DNA from: Escherichia coli
GTDB taxonomy: Bacteria; Pseudomonadota; Gammaproteobacteria; Enterobacterales; Enterobacteriaceae
Assembly: GCF_003018255.1 (NCBI RefSeq)
Contig: NZ_CP027440.1
Direction: 5' to 3' (one strand)
Length of the DNA: 64,000 bases
A model generated the notes under the pieces. The model saw nothing but the letters and a program-made list of their open reading frames with translations. It was not told the origin of the DNA and did no database searches. The translations under genes and the position numbers were made by a program. Shown here in pieces: positions 48,607 to 58,236 of the stretch; within the stretch, counting starts at the first letter, position 1, and the number at the start of each line of letters is the position of its first letter.

Positions 48607-51576
<2,970 letters not shown>

Positions 51577-52264: not shown

Positions 52265-53422
52265 TCAGGATGCGGGGATAACCAACGGTTTATTCCCGCT
52301 TAGCTCGGTCACCAGGTCATTGATGCCATCGCTCATATTTTTGAAGCGCGTCAATGGCGAACGAGTGACCACCACAAATGCGCCAATGTTCTTCTGCGGG
52401 ATCATCGCCATATAGGTAATGAAACCGCCACCACCACCTGTCTTCTGAATAATCCCTGGACGACCCTCTTTCGGGGCCATATATACCCAGCCTAAACCAA
52501 GCGCATCCGCTTTGCCGGGGACATCCATGCCAATCACTTTTGTAAACTGCGCGCGCTGATAAATCAACGTCTGCATGCGATCAGCCTGGTTACTGCGCTG
52601 ATAAAAATCAGATGACAAATACTGCTGCATCCAGCGCATCATATCGCCTGGCGTGGAATAGACGCCGCCGCTGCCAATTGCCGCCAGCGTGTTATTGCAC
52701 GGACTGGCACCGCGCTCAGCAACCATTAAACGGCGGCACTGATCCGGTGAGGGGGTGTAGGTGGTGTCTTTCATCCCCAACGGACGGGTAATCTGCTCTT
52801 CAAACAGCTGGGTATAAGGCTTGCCGGACGCATTCGCCAGTGCATCTGCCAGCAGATCGAATGCGAGGTTGGAGTACGCCGCCTGACTGCCTGGCGCGGC
52901 TTTCAGCTTCGCCGTAGAAAGGTATTTCCAGCGTTGCTCGCGCGTTGGCCAGACAAATACCGGACGATGTGCCGCGCCACCGGGCTGTTCACGGGGCAGG
53001 GCGCTGGTATGGGTTGCCAGATTCACCAGCGTAATGGGCGTCCCATTGTAGGTCGGTACACGTGCGCCTGGTGGAGCATATTTACTTAGCGGATCGTTTA
53101 ACTTCACGGTCCCCTGGTCGAGCAATTTCACCAGCATCTCACTGGTCATTAACTTGGTGAGGGAAGCAATACGTATGACGGAATCCAGCTGCGGGCGAAC
53201 GTTATTACCAGGTCGCGTTTCGCCATAACTGCGAAAGACGCGCTGGTTACCGTCGATAACAACCAGCGCCATCCCCGTGGCACCGCTGCCGTAAAAAATA
53301 TGATCGGCATAACGATCGACAATATCAGAGGCAAACTCCGGTTCAGTGATCGGCTGCGCCGCATGGACGGAGGTCAATGACGCCGCACACAGCACGGCAG
53401 AAAAAAGCAGACTACGTTTCAA
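52265..53422 (-). CDS. ampH: penicillin-binding protein AmpH (class C beta-lactamase fold)
   Basis: 385 aa; signal peptide and SLTK active-site motif. Confidence 0.95.
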   Translation of the reverse strand: MKRSLLFSAVLCAASLTSVHAAQPITEPEFASDIVDRYADHIFYGSGATGMALVVIDGNQRVFRSYGETRPGNNVRPQLDSVIRIASLTKLMTSEMLVKLLDQGTVKLNDPLSKYAPPGARVPTYNGTPITLVNLATHTSALPREQPGGAAHRPVFVWPTREQRWKYLSTAKLKAAPGSQAAYSNLAFDLLADALANASGKPYTQLFEEQITRPLGMKDTTYTPSPDQCRRLMVAERGASPCNNTLAAIGSGGVYSTPGDMMRWMQQYLSSDFYQRSNQADRMQTLIYQRAQFTKVIGMDVPGKADALGLGWVYMAPKEGRPGIIQKTGGGGGFITYMAMIPQKNIGAFVVVTRSPLTRFKNMSDGINDLVTELSGNKPLVIPAS

Positions 53423-53773
53423 CGGTGGTGTCCATAGATTGAATGAAGGTAACTGAGCGTATTTATACTACTCATTGATGGATTGCAAAGGGCGAATTAG
53501 TGCAATAATAGTGTTAAAAACGTAACGGCGCGTAAACACGATCTTTTTCCTGCTCACCAATGCCTGCATTTGTGATCCTGCGCGTGTTAATCCGCTTACG
53601 TAAACAATCTTTGGTTTGTGAAATCCGTCGAAACAATTCTTATGCTCAGGCTGGCGAACTAAGCGCCTTGCTATGGGTCACAATGGGCGGTTTCATTTGG
53701 CTGACGCTTTGTAGCGGTCATGCGGTTAATACACAGCAGTTGTTAAAACGATAAGAAGTTAGCAGGAGTGCAT

Positions 53774-54994
53774 ATGTTTAAGTCTTTTTTCCCAAAGCCG
53801 GGACCGTTTTTTCTCTCGGCCTTTGTTTGGGCATTGATTGCCGTTATCTTCTGGCAAGCCGGTGGGGGGGATTGGGTGGCGCGTATCACCGGCGCTTCCG
53901 GGCAGATCCCGATTAGCGCCGCGCGTTTCTGGTCGTTGGATTTCCTGATTTTTTACGCTTACTACATTGTTTGCGTAGGAATTTTTGCATTGTTCTGGTT
54001 TATCTATAGCCCGCACCGTTGGCAATACTGGTCAATACTCGGTACTGCGCTGATTATCTTCGTCACCTGGTTTTTGGTGGAAGTCGGGGTTGCCGTCAAC
54101 GCCTGGTATGCGCCGTTCTATGATCTGATTCAAACGGCGCTAAGTTCGCCGCATAAAGTCACCATCGAACAATTTTACCGCGAAGTGGGCGTCTTTCTGG
54201 GGATTGCGCTGATCGCGGTGGTGATCAGTGTGCTGAACAACTTCTTTGTCAGTCACTACGTGTTCCGCTGGCGTACGGCGATGAACGAATATTACATGGC
54301 GAACTGGCAACAACTGCGTCATATCGAAGGGGCCGCGCAGCGTGTGCAGGAAGACACCATGCGTTTTGCTTCAACGCTGGAGAATATGGGCGTCAGCTTT
54401 ATCAACGCTATCATGACGTTGATCGCCTTCCTGCCGGTGCTGGTAACGCTCTCCGCACATGTGCCGGAGCTGCCGATTGTCGGGCACATTCCGTATGGTC
54501 TGGTGATTGCCGCTATCGTCTGGTCGCTGATGGGGACCGGATTACTGGCAGTGGTAGGGATCAAACTGCCGGGGCTGGAGTTTAAAAACCAGCGTGTAGA
54601 GGCTGCCTACCGTAAAGAGCTGGTTTATGGTGAAGACGATGCCACGCGCGCGACGCCGCCTACGGTACGCGAGCTGTTTAGCGCCGTACGGAAAAACTAT
54701 TTCCGCCTCTATTTTCACTATATGTATTTCAACATCGCCCGCATTCTCTATTTGCAGGTCGATAACGTTTTCGGTTTGTTCTTGCTGTTTCCGTCAATTG
54801 TTGCCGGTACGATTACGCTCGGCCTGATGACGCAGATTACTAACGTTTTTGGTCAGGTTCGCGGTGCTTTCCAGTACCTGATTAACTCATGGACCACACT
54901 GGTTGAGTTGATGTCTATCTACAAACGTCTGCGCAGCTTTGAACATGAGCTGGATGGTGACAAAATTCAGGAAGTAACCCATACCTTGAGCTAA
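53774..54994 (+). CDS. sbmA: peptide antibiotic/antimicrobial-peptide inner-membrane transporter
   Basis: 406 aa from ATG 53774 ([10 protein letters not shown]), AGGAG upstream. Confidence 0.95.
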
Positions 54995-55006
54995 AAAGGA
55001 GAAGTA

Positions 55007-56101
55007 ATGTCGCGCGTCAATCATCTATCTTCGCTGTCATTGTTGGCGGTTCTGGTTTTAGCGGGATGTAGTAGTCAGGCTCCGCAACCGTTGAAAAAGG
55101 GCGAAAAAGCGATAGATGTGGCGAGCGTCGTGCGGCAGAAGATGCCTGCGAGCGTGAAAGACCGCGATGCCTGGGCGAAAGATCTCGCCACCACGTTTGA
55201 AAGTCAGGGGCTGGCACCGACGCTGGAAAACGTCTGCTCGGTGCTGGCGGTGGCGCAGCAGGAGTCAAATTATCAGGCAGATCCGGCTGTTCCGGGCTTA
55301 AGCAAGATCGCCTGGCAAGAGATTGACCGTCGTGCTGAACGGATGCACATTCCTGCTTTTCTGGTGCATACCGCGCTAAAAATCAAATCGCCAAACGGCA
55401 AAAGCTATAGCGAACGGTTAGATTCGGTGCGTACTGAAAAGCAATTGAGCGCGATTTTTGACGATCTGATCAGCATGGTGCCGATGGGGCAGACGTTGTT
55501 TGGTTCGCTTAATCCGGTGCGCACCGGTGGGCCGATGCAGGTCAGCATTGCCTTTGCCGAACAGCATACCAAAGGGTATCCGTGGAAAATGGACGGTACA
55601 GTCCGTCAGGAAGTCTTCAGTCGTCGCGGCGGGTTGTGGTTTGGTACTTACCATTTACTGAATTATCCCGCCAGCTATAGCGCGCCGATATACCGTTTTG
55701 CTGATTTTAACGCTGGCTGGTACGCCAGCCGTAATGCCGCGTTTCAGAACGCGGTCAGTAAGGTCAGCGGCGTGAAGCTGGCACTGGACGGTGATTTAAT
55801 TCGTTACGACAGTAAAGAGCCCGGGAAAACCGAACTGGCAACGCGCAAACTGGCGGGAAAACTGGGGATGAGCGACAGTGAAATTCGCCGCCAGTTAGAG
55901 AAAGGGGACAGCTTCTCTTTTGAGGAGACGGCGCTGTACAAGAAAGTTTATCAACTTGCCGAAGCGAAAACGGGTAAATCACTACCCCGCGAAATGTTGC
56001 CTGGCATTCAACTGGAAAGCCCGAAAATCACCCGCAACCTGACTACGGCCTGGTTTGCGAAGCGCGTAGACGAACGGCGGGCGCGTTGTATGAAACAGTG
56101 A
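55007..56101 (+). CDS. yaiW: outer-membrane lipoprotein YaiW
   Basis: 364 aa; lipobox LAGC in signal peptide; 12 bp downstream of sbmA. Confidence 0.9.
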   Translation: MSRVNHLSSLSLLAVLVLAGCSSQAPQPLKKGEKAIDVASVVRQKMPASVKDRDAWAKDLATTFESQGLAPTLENVCSVLAVAQQESNYQADPAVPGLSKIAWQEIDRRAERMHIPAFLVHTALKIKSPNGKSYSERLDSVRTEKQLSAIFDDLISMVPMGQTLFGSLNPVRTGGPMQVSIAFAEQHTKGYPWKMDGTVRQEVFSRRGGLWFGTYHLLNYPASYSAPIYRFADFNAGWYASRNAAFQNAVSKVSGVKLALDGDLIRYDSKEPGKTELATRKLAGKLGMSDSEIRRQLEKGDSFSFEETALYKKVYQLAEAKTGKSLPREMLPGIQLESPKITRNLTTAWFAKRVDERRARCMKQ

Positions 56102-56158
56102 TCAAACAGGAATGTCATGCCAGATAAAGCGTTTTAGGTCCTATCTGGCAAGTAAATC

Positions 56159-56467
56159 TTACTGGCGGTGATGTCGCCAGTGCAGCCATAGCGCCACTAC
56201 TGCAAAAATGAGGCAGCCAACTAAAAACGGGATCAGCCCGAAAATGGTGCCGACACCTAAACCAATTTCCACCCGTGGGCGACCTGTTTCCTGGACCTGC
56301 ATTAAGCGCTCATAGACGCCGGGCGCATGCACTAACAGGTTCAGCAATTGCGCCCCAGCCCAAAAGCAAAACAGCACAAACAACGCATAGGCAATGTTGC
56401 CAGGCGTTGAAGAGGCATTGCGATATTTTCCGCTAAACAGCGATTTTGACAGGGTGAAATCAGCCAT
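56159..56467 (-). CDS. yaiY: small inner-membrane protein
   Basis: 102 aa with two hydrophobic helices. Confidence 0.85.
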
Positions 56468-56726
56468 AAAAACCTCCGGAAGTCATCTGCTTCTCTTCTG
56501 GTGTGATACCAGCGGCTTATGGCAAGTCTGACAGGTCATTAAGATTGTCAATATCAGAATCATGGTAAATTGATGTTGGGAATATTCCCGAAGCGTGAAT
56601 CTTCGTCGTGAGTCACAAAATGACAACCTTAAGTTAAATTTATTAACAATTACGGAAATGTTGTCTACGCCACAGACGGATGTTGCAGAATATGCAAGGA
56701 TGTTGTTTTTCGTTAACGGAGCTGCC

Positions 56727-56939
56727 ATGAACTTGCCTGTAAAAATCCGCCGTGACTGGCACTACTATGCGTTCGCCATTGGCCTTATATTCATTCTTAA
56801 TGGCGTGGTGGGTTTACTGGGATTTGAAGCAAAAGGTTGGCAGACCTATGCCGTCGGTCTGGTGACGTGGGTGATTAGTTTCTGGCTGGCGGGGCTGATT
56901 ATTCGTCGTCGCGATGAAGAAACTGAAAACGCCCAATAA
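56727..56939 (+). CDS. yaiZ: small inner-membrane protein
   Basis: 70 aa from ATG 56727 (MNLPVKIRRDWHYYAF); track ORF extends 44 codons upstream. Confidence 0.8.
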   Translation: MNLPVKIRRDWHYYAFAIGLIFILNGVVGLLGFEAKGWQTYAVGLVTWVISFWLAGLIIRRRDEETENAQ

Positions 56940-56984
56940 CAGAGGATTGGGCGTTCTGGGGGCTGACAAAGTGCTCGTTGTTTT

Positions 56985-57085
56985 TGCCGGATGCGGCGCG
57001 AACGCCTTACCCTGCCTACAAAATCATGCAAAATCAGTATATTGCAATTATCTGGTAGGCCTGATAAGCAAAGCGCATCAGGCAA
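56985..57085. repeat. REP elements between yaiZ and ddlA
   Basis: gccggatgcggcgcgaacgccttaccctgcctac ... gtaggcctgataagcaaagcgcatcaggca. Confidence 0.8.
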
Positions 57086-57141
57086 TCTTACGTTTGCCAT
57101 CAGTCTTAAATGCCCAATAAAAGTTATCAGGCATTTAAAAA

Positions 57142-58236
57142 TTACATTGTGGTTTTCAATGCGTTATCCGCAGCGTGACGCTCCAGCGCCAGCTCAATCA
57201 AACGCGTGATCAGGTCGGTGTAACCCAGACCGCTGGCTTGCCACAGCTTCGGATACATACTGATGTTGGTGAAGCCAGGCAGTGTGTTGATCTCGTTGAT
57301 CACCACTTCGTTCTCTGGGGTTAAAAACACGTCTACACGCGCCATGCCTGCGCATCCCAACGTCTGATAAGCCTGAACGGCAATCGCCCGGATCTTATCG
57401 TTGATTTCTGGCGCAATGGCTGCCGGAACTACCACTTTCGCGCCATCTTCGTCAATGTACTTGGTGTCGTAGGCATAGAAATCGCTGGTGAGTACGATCT
57501 CGCCACAGGTGCTGGCTTGCGGATTGTCGTTGCCCAGAACTGCGCATTCGATCTCACGACCTTTTATCCCTTGCTCAACGATCACTTTATGATCGAACTC
57601 GAACGCCAGATCGACGGCAATTGCGTACTGTTCTTCGCTGGTTACTTTGCTGACACCAACAGAAGAGCCCTGATTAGCCGGTTTTACAAACAGTGGTAAC
57701 CCCAGTTTAGACTCTACTTCGGCAAAACTGATGTTGTTACGATTAGCGCGCGTCAGGGTAATAAATGGCGCAATGTTCAGCCCGGCATCGCGCAGCAGAC
57801 GTTTGGTGACATCTTTGTCCATACAGGCTGCTGAAGCCAGAACATCTGAACCTACAAACGGTAAATTGGCGACCCGCAGCATTCCCTGCAAGGAACCATC
57901 TTCGCCCAGCGTACCGTGGACAATCGGGAAAATGACATCCACCGTCGGCAACGGCTGACCGTTTTGCGCGTCGATAAGCTGATGCTCATGTTTACCTGGC
58001 ACTTGCGCAAGGCTGGTCGCCGAAGGGCGCAACGCAATATGGGCAGGATCGTCTGCATTTAGCAGATAATTGCTGGCATCGCTGACGTGCCATTGCCCTT
58101 GTTTATCAATGCCCAGCAGCACAACGTCGAAGCGACTTTTATCAATGGCATCGACAATATTTTTTGCCGATTGCAGAGACACTTCATGTTCCGCTGATTT
58201 ACCACCAAAAACGATTCCTACCCGCAGTTTTTCCAT
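57142..58236 (-). CDS. ddlA: D-alanine--D-alanine ligase A
   Basis: 364 aa ATP-grasp enzyme. Confidence 0.95.

Follow-up and report, generated by a model that had tools for sequence, protein, structure and literature searches.

Why is the gene for SbmA, a peptide importer of the inner membrane, followed in Escherichia coli by that for YaiW, a lipoprotein to which papers up to 2026 still assign no known function, or only the loose label of an outer-membrane 'transporter', and what does this second protein do? Our study addresses this question in a window of 64,000 nucleotides of E. coli DNA, in which positions 53423 to 56101 comprise the intergenic region between ampH and sbmA, sbmA itself, a 12-nt spacer and yaiW. 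The genes and the region between them are as follows:

52265 to 53422, minus strand: ampH (context), a 385-aa open reading frame at a position where K-12 and the best-matching genome both have ampH annotated; it encodes a peptidoglycan DD-carboxypeptidase/endopeptidase and is transcribed divergently from sbmA, with its start codon at 53422
53423 to 53773: divergent ampH/sbmA intergenic control region, 351 bp, 44% GC
53774 to 54994, plus strand: sbmA, 406 aa, a proton-driven inner-membrane peptide importer of the SLiPT fold
55007 to 56101, plus strand: yaiW, a 364-aa lipoprotein of the DUF1615 family with a predicted GH23/SLT-like lysozyme-fold domain

The start of sbmA was taken as the ATG at 53774, as in K-12 and the best-matching genome, and not as the GTG at 53768 given in the list of open reading frames. 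By megablast, 5,420 of the 5,426 complete genomes of E. coli had a match to the segment, annotated as sbmA and yaiW, the top one at 99.9% identity; in 5,418 of the genomes no less than 80% of the segment was found. The sbmA-yaiW locus of E. coli is already known, and the proposed lysozyme-like nature of YaiW is the sole new point. We have high confidence in the joint reading of the locus as an ordinary chromosomal operon, with a control region shared with ampH, a sigma-E promoter, ordinary alleles and a lysozyme-like core in YaiW.

The identities of both genes, as given in the initial annotation, are supported by Pfam, NCBIfam, PDB 7p34 and megablast matches far beyond chance. SbmA matches Pfam SbmA_BacA (PF05992) over profile positions 1-314 of 315 (E 1e-167), the NCBIfam equivalog NF008306 at 776.9 bits (cutoff 492), and the solved transporter PDB 7p34_A across residues 1-406 (E 4.5e-272). 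Residues Y116, R190, E193, E203, R280, K281, Y285, D288, Y368, E378 and R385 are kept; the glutamate-ladder and gate residues needed for proton-coupled transport have been defined as E193, E203, E378, R190, R280, K281, Y285, D288, Y116 and Y368 (PMC8442886), and all mutationally defined essential residues are present in the window's protein. Judged by sequence, the transporter whose structure has been solved is encoded intact by sbmA here. SbmA belongs to the same SbmA/BacA transporter superfamily as Sinorhizobium BacA and Mycobacterium Rv1819c, and the window's protein matches the Rv1819c-type ABC transporter 6tqe weakly (E 1.8e-4) as well as Pfam ABC_membrane_2. Unlike the Rv1819c-type ABC transporters, SbmA is proton-driven and has no nucleotide-binding domain (PMC8442886); the 406-aa protein carries no fused ATP-binding domain, and its Pfam matches are to the transmembrane models SbmA_BacA and ABC_membrane_2 only. 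The locus was initially described as one known for peptide-antibiotic uptake, and this agrees with the literature, which describes SbmA as a homodimer that carries out proton-driven import across the inner membrane and that is exploited by microcins B17 and J25, by bleomycin and by proline-rich antimicrobial peptides.

It had also been suggested that allele differences at this locus can change peptide susceptibility, and of such an effect we see no sign in this window. The sbmA-yaiW genes of K-12 (b0377-b0378) share 98-99% nucleotide identity with the window, and the gene order is the same (autotransporter-iprA-ampH / sbmA-yaiW / yaiY-yaiZ-ddlA), with all feature lengths and the 12-nt spacer equal; the upstream autotransporter gene is disrupted by IS3 in K-12, whereas the window's copy is intact. 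In this arrangement cell-wall genes lie to either side of sbmA-yaiW, ampH before it and ddlA after it. Differences from K-12 amount to 21 of 1221 positions in sbmA, 25 of 1095 in yaiW and 3 of 351 in the intergenic region, where none of the three SNPs falls within the sigma-E promoter elements described below. Three changes result in SbmA (T11P, L70I and I236V), of which P11 and V236 are also the state in Salmonella and Enterobacter, and L70I is a conservative change located in the TM0 domain. YaiW differs by P6H, N156S, A253V, A284G and T320A. The exact SbmA and YaiW protein sequences are already public, on 54 and at least 1000 contigs respectively. Both alleles appear to be functionally ordinary, and therefore the strain should, as far as this locus is concerned, show normal susceptibility to SbmA-dependent peptides; the locus as such is routine annotation.

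The translation start of sbmA, the junction of the two genes and the possible end of their transcript are marked by three features:

53764 to 53768, plus strand: Shine-Dalgarno sequence AGGAG of sbmA, 5 nt before the ATG, with a AGCAGGAG block common to Salmonella
54995 to 55006, plus strand: spacer AAAGGAGAAGTA, 12 nt, identical to K-12, with the yaiW Shine-Dalgarno sequence GGAG at 54998-55001
56118 to 56150: hairpin with arms TGCCAGATA and TATCTGGCA, between the convergent yaiW and yaiY

The spacing of 12 bp noted in the initial annotation is exact, and its proposal of co-transcription is consistent with the genes lying on the same strand, the Shine-Dalgarno site within the spacer, the conservation of the junction and the literature. 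The adjacency is kept in both Salmonella, with a gap of 14 nt, and Enterobacter, with one of 12 nt. A terminator scan gave nine weak sites against 4.6 expected, all within coding sequence and none at the sbmA/yaiW junction, and found no convincing site after yaiW. Co-transcription of yaiW with sbmA is stated in PMC6284057, which cites Arnold et al. 2014 on this point, and both genes are members of the sigma-E regulon in several studies (PMC2731931). The hairpin downstream of yaiW (fold energy -19.6 kcal/mol, with a z-score of only -1.2 and no T-tract) is a possible transcript end. An Rfam match of this hairpin to a miRNA family was sub-threshold and was discarded as a chance match.

How this operon is controlled depends on the reading of the 351-bp region upstream, in which alignment of E. 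coli, Salmonella and Enterobacter reveals short conserved blocks:

53459 to 53471, minus strand: invariant block GTATTTATACTAC, which reads GTAGTATAAATAC on the minus strand; its flanks diverge
53569 to 53575: invariant block TTTGTGA
53619 to 53639, plus strand: conserved block TGAAAnnCnnCGAAACAATTC, with 17 of 21 positions invariant in the three genera
53654 to 53683, plus strand: sigma-E-type promoter of sbmA-yaiW, with -35 element GCGAACTAA, a 16-nt spacer and -10 element GGTCACAA

The promoter elements (cGAACTa, 16 nt, ggTCAcA at 53655-53682, with the pattern match itself at 53656-53682) lie 91-120 bp upstream of the sbmA ATG. The published sigma-E consensus is GGAACTTTT and (T/C)GGTCAAAA (PMC1312014), and GCGAACTAA and GGTCACAA fit it with a GGAACTT-like -35, a TCAAA-like -10 and a spacing of about 16 nt. 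By itself the pattern is not rarer than chance, with two matches in the window against 1.66 expected; across the three genera GCGAACTAA is invariant and GGTC(A/T)CA is conserved, while the spacer and flanks diverge, and sbmA is among the sigma-E promoters that have been assayed (PMC3326320). On the combined evidence of sequence, conservation and literature, we propose that sbmA-yaiW is transcribed from this envelope-stress promoter, with a predicted transcription start near 53690. The TGAAAnnCnnCGAAACAATTC block, 15-35 nt upstream of the -35 element, may act as an upstream promoter element or bind a regulator, and GTAGTATAAATAC on the minus strand is a candidate -10 region for ampH. A FlhDC ChIP peak has been reported in the ampH/sbmA intergenic region of K-12 (PMC4183435). 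A simple scan for sigma-70 promoters over 53300-56600 gave no sites, where 3.4 were expected by chance; the scan was uninformative, and other promoters may be present in the region.

The initial annotation described a 350-bp regulatory leader before sbmA, and of this the regulatory region stands, at 351 bp, as a divergent control region common to sbmA and ampH and not as an established transcribed leader. With the conserved sigma-E-type promoter so close to the ATG, the leader is probably about 85 nt long and not 350. The alternative, that the whole 351 bp is a long transcribed leader with a riboswitch, an attenuator or a leader peptide encoded by the 64-codon open reading frame at 53560-53754, draws on the length of the region, on the ATG that initiates this frame and on a divergence from K-12 that is lower than that of either gene. 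We regard it as highly improbable: conservation across genera is limited to the short promoter-like blocks, the indels between them break the 64-codon frame, the sigma-E promoter lies inside it, and the divergent ampH gene needs roughly half of the region for its own promoter. An Rfam search at E<=1 over 53200-56700 returned no family in the intergenic region, its sole match being that on the hairpin after yaiW, and known riboswitches and leader RNAs were rejected because this chance match was all that it gave. As a gene in its own right the 64-codon frame was likewise rejected, since neither Salmonella nor Enterobacter conserves it and the promoter lies within it.

YaiW matches Pfam DUF1615 (PF07759) over profile positions 2-318 of 319 (E 4.3e-155). 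Its N-terminal signal and the three motifs considered below map as follows:

55058 to 55069, plus strand: lipobox L18-A-G-C21, followed by Ser22 (N-terminus ...LVLAG-C21-S22 in the translation)
55259 to 55267, plus strand: Q85-E86-S87, counterpart of SLT motif I, kept in at least 90% of 68 homologues
55529 to 55543, plus strand: G175-P-M-Q-V179, counterpart of SLT motif II (GLMQ), family consensus GSMQV
55700 to 55723, plus strand: A232-D-F-N-A-G-W-Y239, counterpart of SLT motif III (AYNAG), family consensus ADYNAGxY

A lipobox-like LAGC is also found in the YaiW proteins of Salmonella and Enterobacter. The absence of Asp at the +2 position of a lipoprotein predicts sorting to the outer membrane, and the Ser at +2 in YaiW predicts this location. 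Two papers (PMC12147183 and PMC6284057) cite Arnold et al. 2014 for the report that the protein lies in the outer membrane and is exposed at the cell surface. The YaiW (DUF1615) family is widespread in Proteobacteria; the sbmA-yaiW pairing, in the loci examined, is confined to enteric bacteria. Linkage was judged by exact-protein look-up from two enteric loci (Salmonella and Enterobacter) and nine more distant DUF1615 loci; none of the latter (0/9) held a SbmA/BacA homologue, several of the nine being on short contigs. Pseudomonas aeruginosa PA14 is reported to have YaiW without SbmA (PMC12147183). The initial annotation had called the two proteins coupled, which holds only for the operon linkage in enterics; the distant loci and PA14 together argue for a role of YaiW that is independent of SbmA.

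The structure predicted for YaiW (AF2 model, pLDDT 94.5, pTM 0.89) consists of a soluble, entirely helical domain tethered by a lipid anchor and shows neither a beta-barrel nor a pore, and such an all-alpha protein is unlikely to be a channel-like 'transporter'. Alignment by hhalign of the unmodified protein with the SLT domains of E. coli gave a score of 35.8 (E 1.7e-4), while reversed or shuffled templates scored at most 21.3, and placed E86 on the catalytic Glu of Slt70, MltC, MltE, MltD and MltF, making it the candidate catalytic glutamate. The strongest alignment (score 42.1, E 2.2e-6, probability 89%), in which all three motifs are in register, required the post hoc deletion of residues 96-168; the region from motif II to motif III alone aligns in register with GLMQ and AYNAG (E 0.032). 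Among the 68 homologues, which have 31-51% identity, G175 of motif II and G237 of motif III are invariant, and M177, Q178 and V179 of the former and A232, D233, N235 and Y239 of the latter are at least 90% conserved. Other searches weigh against an SLT relationship: Pfam at E<=10 returned DUF1615 only, with no match to the SLT model, a Foldseek search of the model against the PDB gave no significant match (best E about 1), and nothing significant came from a profile search against PDB sequences. We infer that the core of YaiW is a divergent GH23/SLT-type lysozyme fold with Glu-Ser, G-x-M-Q and N-A-G motifs and an insertion of about 75 residues. This insertion sets it apart from the Family-1 (GH23, SLT-domain) lytic transglycosylases Slt70, MltC and MltE, in which motifs I and II are a compact 15 or so residues apart; in YaiW the spacing from E86 to G175 is 89. 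A C-terminal extension of about 100 residues further distinguishes it from Slt70, MltC, MltD, MltE and MltF. Sequence identity is only 11-13% with the catalytic domain of the GH23 chitinase Ra-ChiC (PDB 3w6b) and with goose-type lysozymes, which are hydrolases acting on chitin or peptidoglycan.

Three readings of this protein have to be weighed. On the first, to which we give somewhat less than even odds, YaiW is an unrecognised active GH23-type lytic transglycosylase or muramidase; it would be the ninth such enzyme of E. coli, its active-site domain would carry an unusual insertion of about 75 residues, and in enterics it would be co-expressed with SbmA under sigma-E. A view implied by the initial annotation and by parts of the literature is that YaiW serves SbmA as a dedicated partner in the outer membrane, capturing or translocating cationic peptides at the cell surface and delivering them to the importer in a two-membrane uptake route. 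The operon linkage with its 12-nt gap fits such a partnership, as does the reported reduction in Bac7 uptake and sensitivity on loss of YaiW (PMC6284057, citing Arnold 2014), and the lacritin fragment N-104 binds YaiW selectively, with a PA14 yaiW mutant being partly resistant (PMC12147183). The nine distant loci and PA14, where YaiW occurs without SbmA, speak against it, as does the helical, poreless architecture of the model, and it leaves the near-invariant lytic-transglycosylase catalytic motifs unexplained; we consider it unlikely.

Catalytic residues are usually lost in pseudo-enzymes. That YaiW is nonetheless a lysozyme-like protein of this kind, a catalytically inactive lipoprotein that binds glycan or peptide, would account for a clear fold match in a sequence too divergent for the SLT HMM and for the 75-residue insertion between motifs I and II. 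The literature lists eight lytic transglycosylases for E. coli, and YaiW is not among them (PMC10139938); its surface exposure, as reported in the papers that cite Arnold et al. 2014, would leave the outer membrane between it and the peptidoglycan. Against inactivity stands the retention of E86-S87 and of both substrate-binding motifs in at least 90% of homologues at only 31-51% identity, and we think it doubtful that the active site is dead. The conserved SLT-like active-site motifs provide a concrete hypothesis, testable with one mutation (E86Q).

Because the lysozyme-like core keeps the catalytic motifs, YaiW would most likely cleave glycan strands in the envelope, or bind peptidoglycan or some related polymer of GlcNAc there. 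The influence of YaiW on Bac7 and further cationic peptides would then be indirect, by envelope remodelling or peptide binding, and would not involve a dedicated hand-over to SbmA. More speculatively, SbmA may have as its physiological cargo a peptide that derives from the cell wall and is set free downstream of YaiW.

If YaiW is indeed an active enzyme, its effect on the entry of antimicrobial peptides would reflect local remodelling of peptidoglycan and the envelope, and a lysozyme-like YaiW would reframe the resistance of yaiW mutants to Bac7 and lacritin N-104. The same finding would matter for how many lytic transglycosylases there are and how far they are redundant, these enzymes being targets for beta-lactam potentiators.

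The sbmA and yaiW genes, which encode the inner-membrane peptide-antibiotic importer SbmA and the DUF1615 lipoprotein YaiW, are arranged as follows according to the ORF list and the sequence:

53422, minus strand: start codon of ampH
53423-53773: ampH/sbmA intergenic region, 351 bp
53774-54994, plus strand: sbmA, 406 amino acids
54995-55006: sbmA/yaiW spacer AAAGGAGAAGTA, 12 nt
55007-56101, plus strand: yaiW, 364 amino acids

The start of sbmA was taken as the ATG at 53774, in line with the annotation of both K-12 MG1655 and the closest genome; the ORF lister gave a GTG at 53768. The genes and coordinates of the pair, as proposed in the initial annotation, are confirmed by these ORFs, by Pfam matches of the two products (SbmA_BacA, E 1e-167; DUF1615, E 4.3e-155), by the NCBIfam SbmA equivalog model (776.9 bits; cutoff 492), by the SbmA structure PDB 7p34 (E 4.5e-272) and by megablast, in which at least 80% of the segment, annotated as sbmA and yaiW, was found in 5,418 of 5,426 complete E. 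coli genomes (closest match 99.9% identity; six genomes without a match and two further with <80% coverage). The finding of this pair is correct, ordinary and already known. Of the 5,449 places matched in the ecoli_genomes collection, 28 belong to records that carry a plasmid label.

Two peptidoglycan genes flank the pair, ampH (DD-carboxypeptidase/endopeptidase) and ddlA (D-Ala-D-Ala ligase; 52265-58236 overall), an arrangement also seen in Salmonella and Enterobacter; with YaiW predicted to be lysozyme-like, this placement is suggestive, yet may be coincidence. The orthologue of K-12 yaiT, a pseudogene split by IS3, is intact in the window (48607-51555, plus strand) and encodes a 982-aa autotransporter adhesin, named ehaB in the closest genome. 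Between the convergent yaiW and yaiY lies a 9-bp inverted repeat (TGCCAGATA / TATCTGGCA, 15-nt loop; 56118-56150) that lacks a T-tract and folds with a z-score of -1.2; a sub-threshold Rfam miRNA match there was dismissed as chance.

Likely co-transcription across the 12-bp gap, as initially proposed, is supported by several observations. The spacer carries GGAG five nucleotides 5' of the yaiW ATG, and no convincing terminator was found between the genes. In the loci of Salmonella enterica and Enterobacter hormaechei, obtained via exact-protein look-up, the whole block autotransporter-iprA-ampH / sbmA-yaiW / yaiY-yaiZ-ddlA is kept, and sbmA is separated from yaiW by 14 and 12 nt, respectively. 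Several independent studies place both genes in the sigma-E (envelope-stress) regulon (PMC2731931), and co-transcription of yaiW with sbmA is stated in PMC6284057. For yaiW, control by CpxR is also cited (PMC13284718).

Alignment of the upstream region across Escherichia, Salmonella and Enterobacter revealed the following elements:

53459-53471: invariant block; read on the minus strand, probably the -10 element of ampH
53569-53575: TTTGTGA, invariant in the three genera
53619-53639: TGAAAnnCnnCGAAACAATTC, invariant or nearly so in the three genera, just upstream of the sigma-E -35
53654-53683: GCGAACTAA-N-GGTCACAA, fitting the published sigma-E consensus GGAACTTTT and (T/C)GGTCAAAA

The sigma-E pattern alone is not rarer than chance (2 matches against 1.66 expected in the window); the promoter call gains weight because exactly its two elements are kept in the three genera, while spacer and flanks diverge in the four-way alignment. 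These conserved elements likely place the sbmA transcription start near 53690, with a predicted leader of ~85 nt. A long regulatory RNA leader is an unlikely reading of this region, and no Rfam family matched within it. The "350-bp regulatory leader" of the initial annotation does correspond to a 351-bp control region, but because the predicted promoter lies close to sbmA and the remainder, with its further short invariant blocks, is common to ampH, the more fitting description is a divergent control region from which only a short leader would be transcribed; this is the sole correction required. A FlhDC ChIP peak has been reported for the K-12 ampH/sbmA intergenic region (PMC4183435). A 64-codon ORF inside the region was rejected, as it lacks conservation in the alignment.

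It had also been suggested that allele differences here could change peptide susceptibility. Alignment with K-12 does show differences, but nothing that predicts altered susceptibility: there are 3 SNPs in the intergenic region, 21 in sbmA (T11P, L70I, I236V) and 25 in yaiW (P6H, N156S, A253V, A284G, T320A). SbmA of Salmonella and Enterobacter likewise has P11 and V236, which makes K-12 the exception at these two positions. The only SbmA change specific to the window allele is the conservative L70I, within the peripheral TM0 domain (PMC8442886). All residues of mutagenesis-proven importance are kept (Y116, R190, E193, E203, R280, K281, Y285, D288, Y368, E378, R385), as is V102, found as Glu in a resistant strain (PMC6284057). 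In public assemblies the exact SbmA occurs on 54 contigs and the exact YaiW on at least 1000. As judged from their sequences, both alleles are benign. Divergence rises from the intergenic region (3/351, 0.9%) through sbmA (21/1221, 1.7%) to yaiW (25/1095, 2.3%); the intergenic value is lower despite mostly synonymous coding changes, although with 3 SNPs this may be sampling noise. In the E. coli strain APEC 102026 (NZ_CP087290.1), the IS5-like ISKpn26 sits in TTAA at sbmA codons 2-3 (equivalent to window ~53777-53780), and cuts the sbmA body off from its own promoter and start codon; the gene, annotated as a longer 1230 bp starting inside the IS end, is probably a natural disrupted or re-promotered allele.

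YaiW contains AQQESNY, GGPMQV and DFNAGWY, which resemble motifs I, II and III (Glu-Ser, GLMQ and AYNAG) of the family-1 lytic transglycosylases. Among 1.84 billion representative proteins searched, 1003 relatives scored E<=0.001, and in an alignment of 68 full-length relatives (31-51% identity to YaiW) residues Q85, E86, S87, G175, M177, Q178, V179, F231, A232, D233, N235, G237 and Y239 are invariant or at least 90% conserved. Proteins listed among those that YaiW resembles include a GH23 chitinase, MltF, Cj0843c, Slt, Slt70, MltC, MltE, g-type lysozyme, DslA, and GH19 endolysins and chitinases.

Profile-profile comparison of the YaiW family with aligned SLT domains from E. coli Slt70, MltC, MltD, MltE and MltF
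Full unmodified alignment: score 35.8, E 1.7e-4, probability 49%; E86 on the catalytic glutamate
Residues 96-168 removed (post hoc): score 42.1, E 2.2e-6, probability 89%; all three motifs in register
Reversed templates (control): score 16-17, E 0.06-0.16, probability at most 1%
Column-shuffled templates (control, n = 30): score at most 21.3, E >=0.01, probability at most 4%

Residues 96-168 form an insertion, predicted to be helical, that separates motif I from motif II; the two motifs are 89 residues apart in YaiW compared with 15 in Slt70, MltC and MltE. The Pfam SLT model gave no match to YaiW even at E<=10, and neither Foldseek against the PDB nor profile and single-sequence searches of PDB sequences returned anything significant. 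Because of these negatives, the spacing, the post hoc deletion, the reliance on a predicted structure and the reported surface exposure of YaiW, we describe YaiW as lysozyme/SLT-like in predicted fold and motifs, and not as an established SLT family member. In the DUF1615 alignment C361 (56087-56089) is invariant and C77 (55235-55237) at least 90% conserved, suggesting that a disulfide links the C-terminal helix with the catalytic-domain helix; E144 (55436-55438), within the family-specific insertion, is also invariant.

The idea that YaiW serves SbmA as a dedicated receptor or translocator of peptides is supported by phenotypes; the predicted fold of YaiW, its conserved catalytic motifs and its SbmA-independent distribution all argue against such a role. 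The two genes, initially described as coupled, are indeed linked, but only in enteric bacteria: tblastn found no SbmA homologue at nine DUF1615 loci (proteins 32-70% identical to YaiW), negatives that carry less weight individually because several of the contigs are short. According to one published study, P. aeruginosa PA14 has YaiW and lacks SbmA, and its yaiW mutant nonetheless shows partial resistance to a cationic peptide (PMC12147183); YaiW therefore has an SbmA-independent function. YaiW may alternatively be a binding protein with no catalytic activity, a reading that sits poorly with the conservation of its motifs.

The best-supported reading is that envelope stress would drive, through sigma-E, expression of a bicistronic sbmA-yaiW operon, supplying a proton-coupled peptide importer of the inner membrane and a lipoprotein anchored in the outer membrane; the predicted lysozyme-like core of this lipoprotein may cut or bind glycan strands, and the effect of the lipoprotein on antimicrobial-peptide entry would be indirect. 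The ampH and ddlA neighbors and the sigma-E control would fit an envelope role but are not proof of it. YaiW is absent from the eight E. coli lytic transglycosylases listed in 2023 (PMC10139938), and yaiW was still of "unknown function" in a June 2026 paper (PMC13284718), and YaiW has elsewhere been called an outer-membrane "transporter" (PMC12147183); no paper in the searchable literature contains both "YaiW" and "lytic transglycosylase", although structure-based databases may already carry a lysozyme-like assignment. What the present analysis adds for YaiW is a structural hypothesis that can be put to the test.
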